Shown here in pieces: positions 24,739 to 36,556 of a DNA stretch of 64,000 nt. Below the pieces are notes generated by a model. It was given only the letters and a program-made list of their open reading frames with translations. It was not told the DNA's origin and did not search any database. Positions within the stretch are counted from its first letter, which is position 1; each line of letters begins with the position of its first letter. Source of the stretch: Escherichia coli (GTDB lineage: Bacteria; Pseudomonadota; Gammaproteobacteria; Enterobacterales; Enterobacteriaceae); assembly GCF_044324875.1 (NCBI RefSeq), contig NZ_CP172185.1, one strand, 5' to 3'. The translations under genes were made by a program, and so were the position numbers.

Positions 24739-26973
24739 ATGAGCACGAGAAAATTCAGAACCCTTATCACCGACATCGGGCTGGCAAAGCTGGCCGCAAC
24801 AACGGCGCCTGGCGGTAGACCTGTACGCCTTACGCACATGGCTGTAGGGGACGGCAATGGAGAGCTTCGTCAGCCGCAGAAAAACCAGACATCGCTTTAC
24901 AATGAGGTTTGGCGCCAGTCTGTCAACCGCGTCTTCACCGACCCGGAGAACCCGAACCGCCTCATCGCCGAACTGGTCATTCCTCCTGAAACCGGCGGAT
25001 TCTGGGTGCGTGAAATTGGTGTGTTTGATGATACAGGTACAATGATTGCAGTAGGAAATACCGCTGAAAGTTACAAGCCCACCAGAGAGGAAGGTTCAGG
25101 GCGGGCGCAGATATTCCGTGCAGTAATCACCGTCACCTCCGACGCCGTGGTGGAACTGGTCATGGACACAACAACAATTCTGCCGACCACGGACTACATT
25201 GATGAGAAAATGGCGGAACACGCACGTTCCCGTAACCACCCTGACGCGACACTGACAGAAAAAGGATTCACCCAACTGAGCAGCGCCACAAACAGCACCT
25301 CTGAAACACTGGCCGCCACACCGAAGGCCGTCAAGGCTGCATATGACCTTGCAGCCGGTAAAGCACCCGCCAGCCACACCCACCCGTGGAATCAGATAAC
25401 TGGTGTGCCATCAGCCTCGCTGACGGCAAAAGGCACCGTACAGCTGAGCAGTGCCACAAACAGTGAGTCAGAGACTGAGGCGGCCACCCCCAAAGCGGTT
25501 AAAGCCTTACACGATATGGTGACGAGCAAGTATACAGGACAGGATGCAACCACCGGACGCAAAGGCATCGTACAGCTGAGCAGCGCCACAAACAGCAATT
25601 CCGAAACACTGGCGGCCACACCGAAGGCAGTAAGTGATGCACTGAGCATGGCGTTCGTGAAGCCAACAACATCCCTGGGGGAAACAGACCTGAACACTCT
25701 GGGGCGTAAGGAAGACGCGGGAGATTATTACCAGCAGAGTGACTCAGGTGCGAGAACAGACAGAAACTATCCTGTAGAGAAGGCAGGAGAGTTACGCATC
25801 CGTGTTGGTGCATGGGGATTCTGCCAGCATGAATACACGAGCTGGGATCCGCCACGAAAATTTATCAGGACAGTTACCGGAAACTTTAACGGTAACGGCC
25901 CATGGTCAGAGTGGGTGGAGGTGACAAACACAGATGCAACAACTGGACGCAAAGGCATCGTACAGCTGAGCAGCGATACAAACAGCAATTCCGAAACGCT
26001 GGCGGCCACACCAAGAGCCGTCAAGGCTGCATATGACCTTGCAGCCGGTAAAGCACCCGCCAGCCACACCCACCCGTGGAATCAGATAACAGGTGTGCCA
26101 TCAGCCTCGCTGACGGCAAAAGGCACCGTACAGCTGAGCAGTGCCACAAACAGTGAGTCAGAGACTGAGGCCGCCACCCCCAAAGCGGTTAAAGCCTTAC
26201 ACGATATGCTGACGAGCAAGTATACAGGACAGGATGCAACCACCGGACGCAAAGGCATCGTACAGCTAAGCAGCGCCACAAACAGCAATTCCGAAACGCT
26301 GGCGGCCACACCAAAAGCTGTTAAAGCTGCGTATGACCTTGCCAACAGCAAAGCCTCGGCAGCCCACACTCATCGCTGGGCTCAGATCACAGACGCCCCT
26401 GTTTTTTCGTCTGTTGCCCGCGTCATCATGGGTAAACAAAGCATAAAAGATATTCTTGATTACTTTGGTTTAGGAGAAGGCTCGACGCTGCCAGTTGGCG
26501 TACCCGTTCCGTGGCCTTCGTCAAGACCACCTGAGGGGTGGTTACAGTGCAACGGTGCCGCATTCACGCGTACAAAATACCCAAAACTGGCGGTGGCCTA
26601 CCCTGACCTCAGGCTACCAGATTTGCGCGGGGAATTTATTCGTGGATGGGATGACCTGCGAATGATTGACAGGGGACGCTTATTGTTATCCACACAGGAA
26701 GCAACATATATTTGTACCGCCATACAGGCGTACCACGGCGTAGCGGGAGGTGCAGATATTCAGGCAGGGATTTCATTTGCATCACATGATAACGACATCA
26801 TAAACATAACCCCTGATCAACCCAGAACCGGTAACGGCATCCTGTACGGCACAAAACCAGTTGACAGATGGGCAATAGCCAGAGCCGGTAAGCTGGTGAG
26901 TAATGAAAAAGACAGATGGATAGCGATCAGACCGCGCAATATCGCTTTTAATTATATTGTGAGGGCAGTTTAA
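24739..26973 (+). CDS. H: Tail fibre protein, P2 gpH-like, with internal repeats
   Basis: 744 aa; conserved N-terminal domain followed by repeated LSSATNS-SET(L/E)AATPKAVKA motifs. Confidence 0.85.
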   Translation: MSTRKFRTLITDIGLAKLAATTAPGGRPVRLTHMAVGDGNGELRQPQKNQTSLYNEVWRQSVNRVFTDPENPNRLIAELVIPPETGGFWVREIGVFDDTGTMIAVGNTAESYKPTREEGSGRAQIFRAVITVTSDAVVELVMDTTTILPTTDYIDEKMAEHARSRNHPDATLTEKGFTQLSSATNSTSETLAATPKAVKAAYDLAAGKAPASHTHPWNQITGVPSASLTAKGTVQLSSATNSESETEAATPKAVKALHDMVTSKYTGQDATTGRKGIVQLSSATNSNSETLAATPKAVSDALSMAFVKPTTSLGETDLNTLGRKEDAGDYYQQSDSGARTDRNYPVEKAGELRIRVGAWGFCQHEYTSWDPPRKFIRTVTGNFNGNGPWSEWVEVTNTDATTGRKGIVQLSSDTNSNSETLAATPRAVKAAYDLAAGKAPASHTHPWNQITGVPSASLTAKGTVQLSSATNSESETEAATPKAVKALHDMLTSKYTGQDATTGRKGIVQLSSATNSNSETLAATPKAVKAAYDLANSKASAAHTHRWAQITDAPVFSSVARVIMGKQSIKDILDYFGLGEGSTLPVGVPVPWPSSRPPEGWLQCNGAAFTRTKYPKLAVAYPDLRLPDLRGEFIRGWDDLRMIDRGRLLLSTQEATYICTAIQAYHGVAGGADIQAGISFASHDNDIINITPDQPRTGNGILYGTKPVDRWAIARAGKLVSNEKDRWIAIRPRNIAFNYIVRAV
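25331..26315 (+). repeat. Near-identical ~295-bp direct repeats inside the tail-fibre gene
   Basis: 25331-25625 and 26021-26315 are almost identical at nucleotide level (offset 690 bp); shorter repeat at 25947-26015. Confidence 0.8.
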
Positions 26974-28154: not shown

Positions 28155-31100
28155 CTAATCTCTGTCACGGAAACTACCGACTGTCTGGCGGATACGGCGT
28201 TCCATTTCCGCACGGACGGCATCACCCACCATTTTTGCCAGTTCGCGCGGGTTTTGCGTGTGAACATCATGCAGGTGAATATGCAGTTCGCCAGTTAATC
28301 CCCATGGTGCCGGCTCACTCTGGCGCGGTCGGGGCGATGCGGGGGATATGGGCTGGCGCACAGCCTCAACCACCGGACGGGATGTTGCCGCCATCACTGG
28401 TGTCATTAGCGGGGAGAACGTCGGCATGACATCGTGAGTCATAACCGGTTTGATCACCGGCGGAACCACTGGCGTAATATTACCGGACAGTACCGGACGG
28501 ACGACCGGAGGAATAACCGGCACATTATTCACGGACACCACCGGCTTCACGACCGGCGACACGTTCGCCGTGGTGGATATCAGCGGCGAAACACTGACAG
28601 GCGGTGGCGCTGGCAGCGGTGGCAACGAAGGCACACTGACCGACGGCACCTGCGGCAGTCTGACAGGTGGCTCACTGACACTACCCGGTAACAGGGAAGC
28701 TGCTCGGTTAAAGCGTTCCTCCTTCCACTCACCACGAACGGCCAGCGCTTCCGGCAGGTTTTTAAAGATAATATCGCCGGGACCAGCGCGTTTTTTCGCC
28801 TGTTTCGCCTCATCCAGCAGACCACCGGTGTTATCGACGATTTTGTTCAGGCGGCGCATAGTGCCGGTATTCTCCCCCGTCAGGGGTGGTTGCCCCCCTT
28901 TGGGTTTTTCGCCGTCTTTTTTATCCTCGTCCTTTTTCGGCGGATTAATGACGTTAACATCCGCCAGAAGCATGGCAGCTTTCTCGTTCAGCAACTCCTT
29001 CTGTTTTAGTTCTTCCGCCTTTTTCCGGGCGCGCTCAACCGCCGACGGAATCAGCCCGAGTTTTTCCAGCACCCGGGTTAATGAGTCAATCAGCAGCGTA
29101 ACCGGACCGGTCACCAGATTGCTGATAAACTCCCCTACCTTCTGCCCGAACGTACGCCCGGCTTCCGTGCACTTGTCCAGCTCATCCTTTGTTGTGCTTA
29201 CCGGCGCGAACAAATCCACGAACCACTGCCACACACGCCCGATTGTCTGCCCGACATACTCAAACAGCGGTCCCAGTGGTGCCACAGCCTCGCGCAGTGG
29301 CGTAAGCCCCTGCCACAGGCCGGACAAGAACCCGCCCACGACAGCCTTCAGCTGGTCCCAGTGCCGCCAGATAAGCACTGCCGCACCGACCAGTGTCGCC
29401 ACCACAAGGCCCACCGGACTTAACAGAAAACCCAGCGCCCCGCCAAGTGCGCCCACCGCACCACTCACCATCCCCCACAGTGCGGGCAGACCTGACAGTC
29501 TGAGCGCCAGTATTCCGATACCGCGCCCCAGTGAAATCAGTGCGCCGCCAGGTGAAGTGAACGCAGCCAGCAGACCACCACGCAGCGCGCCAAGTCCCGC
29601 CTGCACACCACGAAGCCGCCCCGCAACTACGCCCAGCAGTGCAGCAAACCGTCCGGCACCGGAGGTGATACCGACAAACAGCACGCGCCAGCCACCGATA
29701 CCGCCCAGCGGACCACCGAGTACGCCGCGCAGCTGCGTCAGTAACGGCAGCGCACGACCGAGGCCGGATGTGCCGGTCAGCAGGGCAAACCCAAGACGCA
29801 GTTTTGCCAGCGGCCCCATCAACACACCAGTGGCAAGTGACAGCGCCCCCATGGCCGCAACCGCAGCCAGCAGTACACCACCGGCAATCAGCAGTTGTTT
29901 TGTCAGTTCAGGGTGCGCCTGAGCCAGCGCGGTGACTTTCGCAATAACCCGGGTGAACGACTGCGTGACAGAACGCAGCGGCCCGTCAACGAGGTCAGCG
30001 ACACGGATACGCAGTCCTTCCCATGCGCTGTTCAGTGATTTCAGGTCACCGTCCAGGTTATCAGCCATAACACGGGCAGTGTGATTAAGTTCCCCGGTGG
30101 CCAGTTCAATCTCCTGCGTAAGACGGGGAAGATTATTTTCCCCCGCCGCAGTGACAAGATTCATCAGGGAAACATAGGACTCCTGCCCGGCAATAGCCCT
30201 GAAAAAGGAGACCTGCGCGGCATTACCGTATTTTCGGGTGGCCTGGTACAGCTCATTCAGGATATTTTCCATCCGGCGCATGTTCCCGTAAGCATCCTGC
30301 GTCTCCACGCCAAGCTCTTTCAGTGCCATTGCAGCGGCCTTCGGCGGATCAACCAGACGTGACAGACTGGCACGCAGCGCCGTACCTGCATCACTTCCAC
30401 GGATCCCCACACTGCCAAGGACACCCGTCATGGCTGCCGCCTGTTCAAGGGACAGGCCAAGTGAAGCTGCAACCGGACCCGTGTACTTCATGGTTTCACC
30501 CAGTGAACGGAGATCCGTATTGGTTCGTGTGAAGGTGGCGGCCAGCGTGTCACCCACGCGATCCATCTGGTCAGCGGACAGACCAAACTGTGTGAGGATA
30601 TTCGAACTGATATCGGCAGTCTGTCCCAGGTCCATCCCTGCAGCCATTGCCAGATCAAGCACGCCGGGTAGCGCCGCCTGTATGGCCTGTGGTGTGAAGC
30701 CGGCCATGGCAAGGAACGCCTGACCGCTGGCAGCATCACCGGCGGTAAACTGCGTTTCAGAGCCCAGCTTAATGGCCTGTTCGCGCAGCGCCTTAAACTG
30801 CGGACTGTTTTTGTCAATACGGGTCAGCGCCTGGACGCGTGACATCTCCTTACCAAAACTGACCGCCGGTTGCAGGAAACGTCCGGCCGCATAGCCGCCT
30901 GCCGCCGCCGTACCAACCGCCGTAAGTCCGACCGTTTTAAGTTTTCCCGCCGTCTCCTGAGCACGGGAATATTGCTGGCGTGCCTGCGTGACACGTGCCA
31001 GCGCCTGCCGTTCGCGTTCCAGCTGGTCGTTGTATTGCTGTGTTCGCCGTATGGCCTGTTGAATGGTGTTGTCACTGCCGGAAAGCGCAATACCGTGGCG

Positions 31101-31466
31101 CCGCAGCTCACCACCCAGTTCGCGCATTCGCTGAACTTCACGCGCACGGACCTCATTGAGACGCTCAAGTTTGAGGCTCAAATCGTTCATCAGCTTTTTC
31201 TGTTTGTCAGACAGCACGGTTCCGGCGCGCTGAATTTGCTGAAGTGCGCTTAACTGGCGTTGTGCCCGGGCAATGCCGTTTCCGGCCTTGTTTGCAGCCT
31301 CGCGGGCGCGATCAAATGAACGGGCGTGGCGTTCCAGGTTTTTGATCGCACCCTGCGTTCTCTGTATGGAGTCGCCAAGCTGGCCCATCATGCGACGGGC
31401 GTTTTCGGTGGGACGGGTCAGCCTGTCAACAGCGCTGAAGGCGACCCGTATATCAAGCGTTTTCAT
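28155..31466 (-). CDS. T: Tail tape measure protein, P2 gpT-like
   Basis: ~1100 aa, coiled-coil N-terminus, Gly/Ala-rich TM-like middle, Pro/Val-rich C-terminus; start MKTLDI overlaps the E' stop. Confidence 0.85.
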   Translation of the reverse strand: MKTLDIRVAFSAVDRLTRPTENARRMMGQLGDSIQRTQGAIKNLERHARSFDRAREAANKAGNGIARAQRQLSALQQIQRAGTVLSDKQKKLMNDLSLKLERLNEVRAREVQRMRELGGELRRHGIALSGSDNTIQQAIRRTQQYNDQLERERQALARVTQARQQYSRAQETAGKLKTVGLTAVGTAAAGGYAAGRFLQPAVSFGKEMSRVQALTRIDKNSPQFKALREQAIKLGSETQFTAGDAASGQAFLAMAGFTPQAIQAALPGVLDLAMAAGMDLGQTADISSNILTQFGLSADQMDRVGDTLAATFTRTNTDLRSLGETMKYTGPVAASLGLSLEQAAAMTGVLGSVGIRGSDAGTALRASLSRLVDPPKAAAMALKELGVETQDAYGNMRRMENILNELYQATRKYGNAAQVSFFRAIAGQESYVSLMNLVTAAGENNLPRLTQEIELATGELNHTARVMADNLDGDLKSLNSAWEGLRIRVADLVDGPLRSVTQSFTRVIAKVTALAQAHPELTKQLLIAGGVLLAAVAAMGALSLATGVLMGPLAKLRLGFALLTGTSGLGRALPLLTQLRGVLGGPLGGIGGWRVLFVGITSGAGRFAALLGVVAGRLRGVQAGLGALRGGLLAAFTSPGGALISLGRGIGILALRLSGLPALWGMVSGAVGALGGALGFLLSPVGLVVATLVGAAVLIWRHWDQLKAVVGGFLSGLWQGLTPLREAVAPLGPLFEYVGQTIGRVWQWFVDLFAPVSTTKDELDKCTEAGRTFGQKVGEFISNLVTGPVTLLIDSLTRVLEKLGLIPSAVERARKKAEELKQKELLNEKAAMLLADVNVINPPKKDEDKKDGEKPKGGQPPLTGENTGTMRRLNKIVDNTGGLLDEAKQAKKRAGPGDIIFKNLPEALAVRGEWKEERFNRAASLLPGSVSEPPVRLPQVPSVSVPSLPPLPAPPPVSVSPLISTTANVSPVVKPVVSVNNVPVIPPVVRPVLSGNITPVVPPVIKPVMTHDVMPTFSPLMTPVMAATSRPVVEAVRQPISPASPRPRQSEPAPWGLTGELHIHLHDVHTQNPRELAKMVGDAVRAEMERRIRQTVGSFRDRD

Positions 31467-31979
31467 GCTCTGCGTTCCCGCTGCGAAGGGCCGCCCGCTC
31501 ACGCCAGGCGACCACCTCGCCGGGATCCATCAGGAAGATTTCAGCGGGAGACCAGTTGAAAATAACGGCGATATCCGCCACAAAGTCTTCAATATGCTCA
31601 AAGGGCACGACGGTTATCAGCCTGCCGTCGCCGCCACGCTCTTCCCGCCAGAGTCCTGACCGGCCAAAAAATTAACCGCCACCCCGCACAGCTGAATAAA
31701 ATCAGCGGACCCCATGCGCTTAAGCAGAACCTCGTCCAGTCGCGGCGAAGTGACGCGCGGGAGTAACTCAAACATCGCGTCCGTTTTCATGTTCAGCACG
31801 TCAAGCAGTGACAGCCCGCGCAGTGAACCGGCCTGCTGTACAGCAGGCGTGATTTCCACATACGTGATTTTTTTGTTACCGAGCACAAGGGGCGTTTTCA
31901 GCGTCACGCCGCGCTCACTGGTCACGTCCGCCGCATCAGCACCGTCAGTAACAGGGGCAACAACCGGATTTTCTTTCAT
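31454..31979 (-). CDS. E: Tail assembly chaperones gpE (31617-31979) and frameshift extension E' (to 31454)
   Basis: E is a 120-aa ORF; a -1 frame is open from the slippery site to a stop at 31454 that overlaps the T start. Confidence 0.7.
31665..31671 (-). other. Programmed -1 ribosomal frameshift site (T TTT TTG) for E/E'
   Basis: Heptamer TTTTTTG in X_XXY_YYZ register within E, 15 codons before the E stop. Confidence 0.65.
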
Positions 31980-36315: not shown

Positions 36316-36549
36316 GTGGAAAGGCCCCGGAAAACATTTCTGTTTAACCGAGGCCCTAACCGCATTACCTTGACAAGTGAAAGGTTAGCGCCTCTCCGGA
36401 AAAGGAGCAAGTGCTATGTCGCAAAAATCGCTTACGGCCATCACGTTCTGCGTGACGGCAATCCTCATCATCTGGATATTGCACGGTTCGCTGTGCGAAA
36501 TACGGATGAGCTTCTGGGGAGCGGAGTTTGCGGCGTTCTTACAATGTAA
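36316..36549 (+). CDS. mok-like overlapping reading frame of the hok-like locus
   Basis: 77-aa ORF starting ~100 nt upstream of and overlapping the hok-like ORF in another frame. Confidence 0.4.
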   Translation: MERPRKTFLFNRGPNRITLTSERLAPLRKRSKCYVAKIAYGHHVLRDGNPHHLDIARFAVRNTDELLGSGVCGVLTM

Positions 36550-36556
36550 GAAGTAA
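36416..36556 (+). CDS. Hok/Gef-family type I toxin (46 aa)
   Basis: MSQKSLTAITFCVTAILIIWILHGSLCEIRMSFWGAEFAAFLQCKK: TM helix then SLCEIR and E(V/F)AAF motifs as in plasmid R1 Hok; AAGGAG RBS. Confidence 0.7.
   Translation: MSQKSLTAITFCVTAILIIWILHGSLCEIRMSFWGAEFAAFLQCKK

Follow-up and report, generated by a model that had tools for sequence, protein, structure and literature searches.

Within the C-terminal region of a tape measure protein (TMP) encoded by an Escherichia coli prophage, we found a Pro/Val-rich segment that is, on balance, best explained as a lineage-specific, length-tolerant and non-helical expansion, via unequal recombination, of a Pro/Val-rich spacer that the TMP already possessed. 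The Pro-rich spacer as such is already known, being typical of the subfamily to which the protein belongs, and what is new here is its copy-number-variable expansion. Aside from that expansion, the TMP is an ordinary structural gene in an ordinary P2-like prophage. The prophage lies in the window, by which we mean the whole stretch of 64,000 nucleotides that was analyzed, and the tape measure gene and its neighbors occupy the following positions:

31665-31671, minus strand: P2-type slippery site TTTTTTG, from reading of the sequence
31617..31979, minus strand: gpE-like tail assembly chaperone, upstream of the TMP gene (phrog_103; PGAP 'GpE family phage tail protein')
31453-31608, minus strand: E' extension of the gpE-like gene, overlapping the TMP start by 14 nt
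28155..31502, minus strand: longest ORF of the tape measure gene, 1115 aa from GTG
28155..31466, minus strand: gene for the tape measure protein, a gpT homologue of 1103 aa, with its stop codon
27655..28143, minus strand: gpU homologue (tail protein), directly downstream of the TMP gene (PF06995 Phage_P2_GpU, 2.8e-41; phrog_76)

We placed the TMP start at the ATG at 31466 (MKTLDIRV), as in homologues and in the PGAP annotation, which gives a protein of 1103 aa. This protein matches PF10145 (PhageMin_Tail) in Pfam at 6.2e-53 over ORF residues 240-439, TIGR01760 (tape_meas_TP901) in NCBIfam at 6.7e-78 over 344 of 349 profile positions (its sole NCBIfam match) and phrog_28 in PHROG at 7e-183. When we checked the position of the gene, it was found downstream of a frameshifting tail-chaperone pair and upstream of baseplate/hub genes; in P2, the E/E+E' frameshift occurs at TTTTTTG (PMC3091744). 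By both profile matches and gene context, the gene encodes a TMP with a TP901-type core, in agreement with the P2-family identity proposed in an earlier note on this DNA. As read from the sequence, the N-terminal ~190 aa are rich in R, Q and E, and a hydrophobic stretch rich in G, A and L extends over ~540-735.

A prophage region in E. coli genomes including B771 matches the window at 99.9% identity, and the prophage is a complete P2-like element of ~33 kb that runs from an integrase next to dmsA to ogr, on the same side as serS. According to the RefSeq annotation of the 99.9% identical B771 region, it carries int, cox, a gpA-like replication endonuclease, Q/P-like portal and terminase genes, O/N/M-like scaffold, capsid and small terminase genes, lysis genes, the baseplate genes V/W/J/I, the fibre genes H/G, the sheath and tube genes FI/FII, and E/E', T, U, D and ogr. 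The prophage thus has the gene order and hallmark genes of P2-like phages (Peduoviridae), and its closest phages are Peduoviridae. Among TMPs of cultured phages, the best matches come from Xuanwuvirus (P88 and its relatives) at merely 66-68% identity, and the expanded TMP allele was not found in any isolated phage. Two other ways of reading the DNA of the tape measure gene were considered and rejected. An antisense ORF of 490 aa (28450-29922, plus strand) and an alternative-frame ORF of 81 aa gave no PHROG matches and were discarded as coding sequences, and a programmed frameshift inside the TMP or a separate downstream gene was discarded because the conserved blocks that flank the segment lie in one frame.

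The earlier note had described the Pro/Val-rich segment as a repetitive C-terminal tail at 28155-28750. Both runs that it quoted, PVVKPVVSVNNVPVIPPVVRPV and PPLPAPPPVSVSP, are present in frame, but the placing at the terminus did not hold, as that interval takes in the conserved, non-repetitive last ~50 residues of the protein. In an alignment of five TMPs (this protein with those of P88, phiT5282H, ST16-OXA48phi5.4 and 3LV2017), the segment forms a gap against the other four, and by its position between two conserved blocks it is an internal spacer rather than a terminal tail. From the N-terminal side, the region is made up as follows:

28719..28784, minus strand: motif GPGDIIFKNLPEALAVRGEWKE, ORF residues 907-928, conserved; the N-terminal border of the spacer
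28305..28691, minus strand: Pro/Val-rich spacer, ORF residues 938-1066, 129 residues of which 33 are Pro and 27 Val
28368..28577, minus strand: periodic core of the spacer, ORF residues 976-1045, in ~16-aa units with Pro at every 4th residue
28158..28304, minus strand: C-terminal module GELHIHLHDV...NPRELAKMVGDAVRAEMERRIRQTVGSFRDRD, conserved in 5 of 5 aligned TMPs

The block that flanks the spacer on its N-terminal side, GPGDIIFKNLPEALAVRGEW, contains a GPGDIIFKN...RGEW motif (hereafter the FKN motif), which has invariant columns in the five-TMP alignment; its G, I and F are also invariant across an alignment of 25 sequences. On the other side, the last ~50 residues of the TMP form a conserved module (GELHIHLHDV...RELAKMVGDAVRAEMERRIRQTVGSFRDRD, closing with GSFRDRD), and phrog_5431 and phrog_17114 match this module with their C-terminal ends. 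Positions 130-183 of the phrog_5431 profile are matched twice by the TMP, and this double match would fit an internal duplication. No Pfam family matched the C-terminal 201 aa or the C-terminus of the longest allele (see below), and in a sequence search of the PDB the C-terminal third was covered by no solved chain.

Pro makes up 25.6% of the spacer compared with 3.2% elsewhere in the TMP (Fisher p = 4e-16), and Val 20.9% compared with 6.4% (Fisher p = 6e-7), which bears out the enrichment that the earlier note had seen. The repeat check that it had proposed was also positive. The repeating unit spans ~16 aa and can be written roughly as the peptide (NITPVVPPVIKPVMTH)n or as [ND][VI]xP-VVxP-V[IV]xP-V[MLV]xx, and the autocorrelation of Pro peaks at lags 4, 8, 12 and 16 (z = 3.4-6.7 with 2000 shuffles), from z = 3.4 at lag 4 to z = 6.7 at lag 16, the strongest. 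Periodicity at lags 4 and 16 indicates a real repeat beyond compositional bias, and it is also present in a longer allele, the longer alleles being built from like units. At the DNA level, TRF returned just a 12-nt array of 2.5 copies, and the other repeat search gave short, weak families; the units in the window are too diverged to be picked up as tandem repeats in the DNA, and the repeat becomes visible in the protein and in the longer alleles. The PxxxP register is nonetheless kept across diverged units, which hints at selection for a specific conformation instead of a passive spacer.

For the proposed disorder check, we modeled the last 303 residues as a monomer with AlphaFold2 using the homologue alignment, and at a pTM of 0.21 the model serves as a disorder check at most. 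Helices were predicted at ORF residues 821-852, 880-904 and 1085-1109, the last of them (fragment residues 273-297, block pLDDT 74-86) falling in the C-terminal module and being the sole confident helix of the C-terminal region. Between them, ORF residues 905-1084 have zero predicted secondary structure, with block-mean pLDDT of 44-65 over the spacer and 44-51 over the repeat core, in keeping with a disordered segment. Low pLDDT in a monomer model is no proof of disorder for a trimer confined inside a tube.

To place the spacer among its relatives, we used the last 376 residues as a query against 1.84 billion representative proteins and took the distance from the FKN motif to the C-terminus in every sequence retrieved. 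About 60 relatives carry the motif in the form G(D/E)I(I/V)FK(N/D/H), and the TMP shares with them a common architecture of LEKLG, a variable linker 1, the motif itself, a variable linker 2 and the conserved C-terminal module of ~50 aa. We refer to this group as the FKN-motif subfamily, an informal grouping of enterobacterial P2-like TMPs defined in this analysis. In the relatives with a complete C-terminus, 94-129 aa follow the motif (122 in P88), with one at 159, compared with 200 aa in the present protein; linker 2, between the motif and the C-terminal module, is 30-65 aa long in complete relatives and 95 aa in one, compared with 136 aa here. The linker of P88 is 58 aa long and 19% Pro, with one recognizable copy of the unit (NITPVVPAPLPPALVPVVAASSRPVAEAIR). 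Low-complexity sequence also occupies the neighboring variable segment in other relatives, namely KTQVPPAGxxANGTATD three times in P0077, KKTDPLIEDAHKKTAE three times in P0161, and P/A-rich tracts in P0076, P0091 and P0175. One further protein matching the P/V region, the KKPVL(T/P)E(S/T)-repeat protein P0095, was judged a compositional match and rejected as a homolog. A Pro-rich variable linker is therefore a trait of this TMP subfamily, and it is the expansion alone that distinguishes the present lineage. The earlier note had called the low-complexity region unusual for the family: a Pro-rich spacer proved normal in the subfamily, while an expansion to this length, far beyond that of relatives outside the lineage, is indeed unusual. 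Related TMPs sharing the same extension were found only as close E. coli prophage alleles (93-94.5% amino acid identity), some of them longer still, with shorter spacers elsewhere. In the literature searched, we found no description of a Pro/Val-rich TMP repeat.

Comparison with two named phages shows where the additional length resides. The TMP of P88 and other Xuanwuvirus (Peduoviridae), with 935 aa, is 68% identical over the whole protein and is encoded in the same gene order (E/E', T, U). It has the same conserved C-terminal blocks and a homologous Pro/Val-rich spacer containing NITPVVP..LVPVVAASSRPVAEAIR, but it differs in having 122 aa after the FKN motif instead of 200 and a G/A/L hydrophobic region that is ~87 aa shorter. 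P2 gpT is more distant, with the same flanking genes and E/E' slippery site TTTTTTG, and its alignment, at 33% identity, covers the putative N-terminal coiled coil, the TP901-type core and the hydrophobic region but reaches no further than the LEKLG block; only 96 aa come after LEKLG in gpT compared with 302 here, with neither FKN motif nor P/V repeat. Its C-terminal end weakly resembles that of the present TMP (BLAST not significant), and the charged linker of ~110 aa together with the FKN block gave no BLAST alignment to P2. The earlier note had set ~1100 aa against 815 aa for gpT, and both figures are right, at 1103 and 815 aa. By alignment, the excess of ~290 aa consists of a longer G/A/L region, the ~110-aa charged linker with the FKN block, and the P/V spacer. 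TMPs of more than 1000 aa are not unusual among P2-like phages; that of the P2-like KL3 has 1075 aa, with a tail of 160 nm (PMC3091744).

Evidence on the origin of the expansion comes from its own allelic variation. We identified the expanded C-terminus in only 27 of 5426 complete E. coli genomes, in the following forms:

Window form, 22 genomes: TMP of 1103 aa, 200 aa after the FKN motif
CM2, CS5L and 23CRST011, 3 genomes: TMP of 1180 aa (+231 nt), 277 aa after the FKN motif
Br_112_kylling, 1 genome: TMP of 1238 aa, 342 aa after the FKN motif
Strain 135, 1 genome: real frameshift, ORF split into 970 + 135 aa, after-FKN length not applicable
28390..28391, minus strand: junction in the window at which 231 nt (77 aa) are absent relative to CM2, CS5L and 23CRST011, from DNA and protein alignment

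Nearly all carriers (26 of 27) match the window form or either longer form, both of which read as intact ORFs, and a 676-nt sequence is identical in 12 independent complete genomes and 99.7% identical in 10 more. Over the whole TMP, alleles from E. coli prophages are 93-94.5% identical in amino acid sequence, and in the window, B771, CM2 and Br_112, that is, in all alleles read save that of strain 135, the ORF remains in frame through to the C-terminal module. The 231-nt indel is bounded in the long allele by imperfect direct repeats of ~48 nt encoding TPV(M/V)(A/T)A(I/T)SRPV(L/V)EAVR, and the window allele corresponds to the left half of repeat copy 1 joined to the right half of copy 2. In the longest allele (1238 aa), a 195-nt tandem repeat present in 2.3 copies with 95% matches accounts for +65 aa. 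This allele is also 7 aa shorter in the G/A/L region, and the other length difference between alleles lies almost wholly in the proline-periodic segment. The length steps between related prophages, +77 and +65 aa, are thus in frame and are bounded by or made of direct repeats, a pattern characteristic of unequal recombination or replication slippage. Together with the double phrog_5431 match, the allele comparison shows that in-frame length variants are generated by such events between repeat units.

A proline at every fourth residue would make an alpha-helical rod, the form of most of a TMP, impossible, and we infer that the spacer is an extended, flexible tether. Pro-rich low-complexity sequences also act as extended spacers or springs rather than folded domains in the proline-rich spacer of TonB and the PEVK region of titin, built of EP/KP dipeptides and charged PEVK units, respectively, although these proteins are unrelated to the TMP and the analogy is one of mechanism alone. 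TMPs are textbook molecular rulers, for which ~0.15 nm per residue is established in helical segments. Assuming a range of 0.15-0.3 nm per residue (helical to extended), the 77-aa step would correspond to roughly 12-24 nm of extra ruler, and with every unit gained, the ruler, and hence the tail, may grow by a few tube rings. By analogy with other tape measures, the spacer possibly adjusts ruler length.

Phages Mu, T4 and TP901-1 suggest by analogy how the expanded spacer would be accommodated in the tail. The conserved C-terminal module of ~50 residues would anchor in the gpD/gpV hub-spike and nucleate tube assembly, and the P/V spacer would sit beside this anchor, either in the hub cavity or in the part of the tube lumen nearest the baseplate, and would be among the first parts expelled once the sheath contracts. 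Spacer length would drift because its exact value is only weakly constrained. In Mu, order is confined to the C-terminal 17 residues of the TMP, which are held fast between hub and spike (PMC11915804). In T4, a C-terminal loop of the TMP attaches to the distal tube, the C-terminal part is the first to be expelled once contraction has occurred, and the TMP has been noted to contain a proline-rich region (bioRxiv 10.64898/2026.03.06.709160). The C-terminal 60 residues of the TP901-1 TMP are essential, internal deletions lead to proportionally shorter tails, and its repeats have been proposed to aid duplication and deletion (PMC5099701).

Two of these tape measures can be compared with the present one directly. 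Like it, the TP901-1 TMP contains internal tandem repeats, the number of which can change by duplication or deletion (PMC5099701; PMC8616913); its tail length is proportional to TMP length, and the repeats come before the ~60 C-terminal residues, which are essential (PMC5099701). The TP901-1 repeats, however, are centrally placed helical units of 11 or 18 aa that carry aromatic markers, whereas those in the present TMP are of ~16 aa, proline-periodic and so non-helical, without such markers and adjoining the C-terminal module. T4 gp29 is likewise the TMP of a contractile tail, and its functional domains are separated by a proline-rich stretch that is presumably non-helical (bioRxiv 10.64898/2026.03.06.709160). 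In gp29, this stretch is flanked by the N-terminal coiled coil and the transmembrane segment, away from the C-terminus, and the likeness is by description only; no account of repeats or of variable copy number was found for it.

A functional rather than length-tolerant array was also considered, in which the spacer would be a periplasm-spanning rod or tether with a length tuned to envelope geometry, a role that we regard as unlikely. Following sheath contraction and loss of the spike, the TMP would exit the tube with its C-terminal end first, the stiff Pro-rich array would bridge the tube tip to the inner membrane, and the hydrophobic G/A/L region would insert into that membrane; TonB, with its own Pro-rich spacer, offers a periplasm-spanning parallel. 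Conservation of the Pro register across diverged units would be expected of such a rod, ~130-270 residues at ~0.3 nm each would be enough to span a periplasm, and the spacer is suitably placed, C-terminal of the hydrophobic region (~540-735) and just ahead of the putative hub-anchoring module. The T4 TMP, the C-terminal part of which exits first and engages the membrane, adds to this (bioRxiv 10.64898/2026.03.06.709160). On the other hand, P2 and most relatives infect similar hosts with a spacer of 30-65 aa or none, and a 1.7-fold variation in length among E. coli prophages with TMPs otherwise 93-94.5% identical argues against fine tuning.

The same length variation can be given a more adaptive reading, which we offer as a speculative and rather improbable one. 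The P/V array would then be a recombination-driven length rheostat that moves by blocks of 65-77 aa through 935 (P88, ancestor-like), 1103, 1180 and 1238 aa, giving discrete classes of tail length or envelope spanning, with the polymorphism maintained by selection for how far the tail reaches (for instance, across capsule or O-antigen layers). If so, the non-helical segment would add to the ruler at a nm-per-residue value unlike that of the helical part. The natural series of 1103, 1180 and 1238 aa could be used to test if proline-periodic, non-helical segments count toward tail length, as well as how much slack is tolerated at the baseplate-proximal end of the TMP.

Annotation of the gene bears on another possibility, that the prophage is decaying and the expansion is junk, either neutral or mildly deleterious, with repeats of no role in a TMP that is becoming a pseudogene. 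RefSeq/PGAP flags the TMP gene as 'incomplete; missing C-terminus' in all RefSeq genomes inspected despite an intact ORF, leaving ~1.1 kb unannotated (window ~28155-29270), and a protein-database search with the C-terminal 222 aa as query returned just fragments of up to 374 aa (full-length protein not found), probably because the complete protein is missing from PGAP output. This flag, the frameshift in strain 135 (970 + 135 aa) and the absence of the allele from cultured phages would all suit a decaying gene. We nevertheless consider decay quite improbable. The flag is an annotation artifact, as neither the window nor B771 contains a stop or frameshift, and the pseudogene label is wrong for this intact ORF. 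All alleles read other than that of strain 135 are intact to the C-terminal module, with 26 of the 27 carriers matching intact forms, and both characterized length changes (231 nt, and the 195-nt tandem repeat giving +65 aa) are in frame. The prophage itself, spanning integrase to ogr, is complete and lacks none of the P2 morphogenesis genes. Tools that grade prophage completeness may mistakenly call such prophages defective.

Finally, it is scarcely credible that the segment is an assembly error, a separate small gene, a frameshifted product or an opposite-strand gene, although the long antisense ORF (490 aa) and the splitting of TMP C-termini into ORFs of 'unknown function' in some phage annotations (phrog_5431, phrog_17114) might suggest it, because the 676-nt sequence recurs across independent genomes, the repeats are imperfect, which makes assembly collapse unlikely, and the conserved protein blocks on both sides share one frame.

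Tandem repeats also occur in the tail tape measure proteins (TMPs) of two P2-like relatives recovered by the representative-protein search, in the linker N-terminal to the FKN motif, the conserved block that precedes the Pro/Val-rich spacer. P0077 carries three copies of KTQVPPAGxxANGTATD and P0161 three copies of KKTDPLIEDAHKKTAE in this linker. These are unrelated repeats, and repeat expansion thus seems to be recurrent in the C-terminal third of TMPs of the FKN-motif subfamily. Two further parts of the protein vary between alleles (residues counted from the GTG at 31502):

29400-29900, G/A/L-rich hydrophobic region, TMP ORF residues ~540-735
about 28880-28940, second short variable patch, TMP ORF residues ~856-875

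Length varies in the G/A/L-rich region as well, which is shorter than in the window protein by ~87 aa in Escherichia phage P88, by 14 aa in the Klebsiella and Enterobacter phages and by 7 aa in the Br_112_kylling allele. The second patch reads PPKKDEDKKDGEKPKGGQPP in the window versus PPQNDKDKKPPVPAPAATAP in the longer alleles of E. coli CM2 and Br_112, a difference that suggests mosaic exchange in addition to copy-number change.

In all genomes inspected, RefSeq/PGAP presents the intact 1103-aa TMP gene (28155-31466) as a pseudogene labelled 'incomplete; partial in the middle of a contig; missing C-terminus', leaving its 3' ~1.1 kb (28155-29270) without annotation. The protein-database search recovered fragments alone and no full-length TMP. 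In one carrier genome, E. coli strain 135 (NZ_CP080260.1, 3201-6538), the TMP is broken into ORFs of 970 and 135 aa, with a 3' segment that falls ~10 nt short of the window's; the split reflects either real inactivation by a frameshift or an error in sequencing.

The start of the TMP gene adjoins the following features:

31617-31979, - strand, gpE-like chaperone gene
31665-31671, - strand, TTTTTTG, P2-type -1 frameshift heptamer inside the gpE-like gene
31453-31608, E' ORF, overlapping the TMP ATG by 14 nt

This overlap suggests that E' and the TMP are translationally coupled.

Elsewhere in the prophage, whose GC content is 54-62% across most of its length, a large block of the tail fibre protein, THPWNQITGVPSASLTAKGTVQLSSATNSESETEAATPKAVKALHDM.TSKYTGQDATTGRKGIVQLSSATNSNSETLAATPKAV, is duplicated internally and so present twice. 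The short motif GIVQLSSATNSxSETLAATPKAV recurs several times in this protein, and TRF detected no tandem array in its gene at the DNA level.

24739-26973, + strand, tail fibre gene, 744-aa protein
~1800-35400, prophage of ~33 kb, between dmsA and serS

Just outside the prophage, past its ogr end, is a gene (~36415-36555) for a toxin of the Hok/Gef family.
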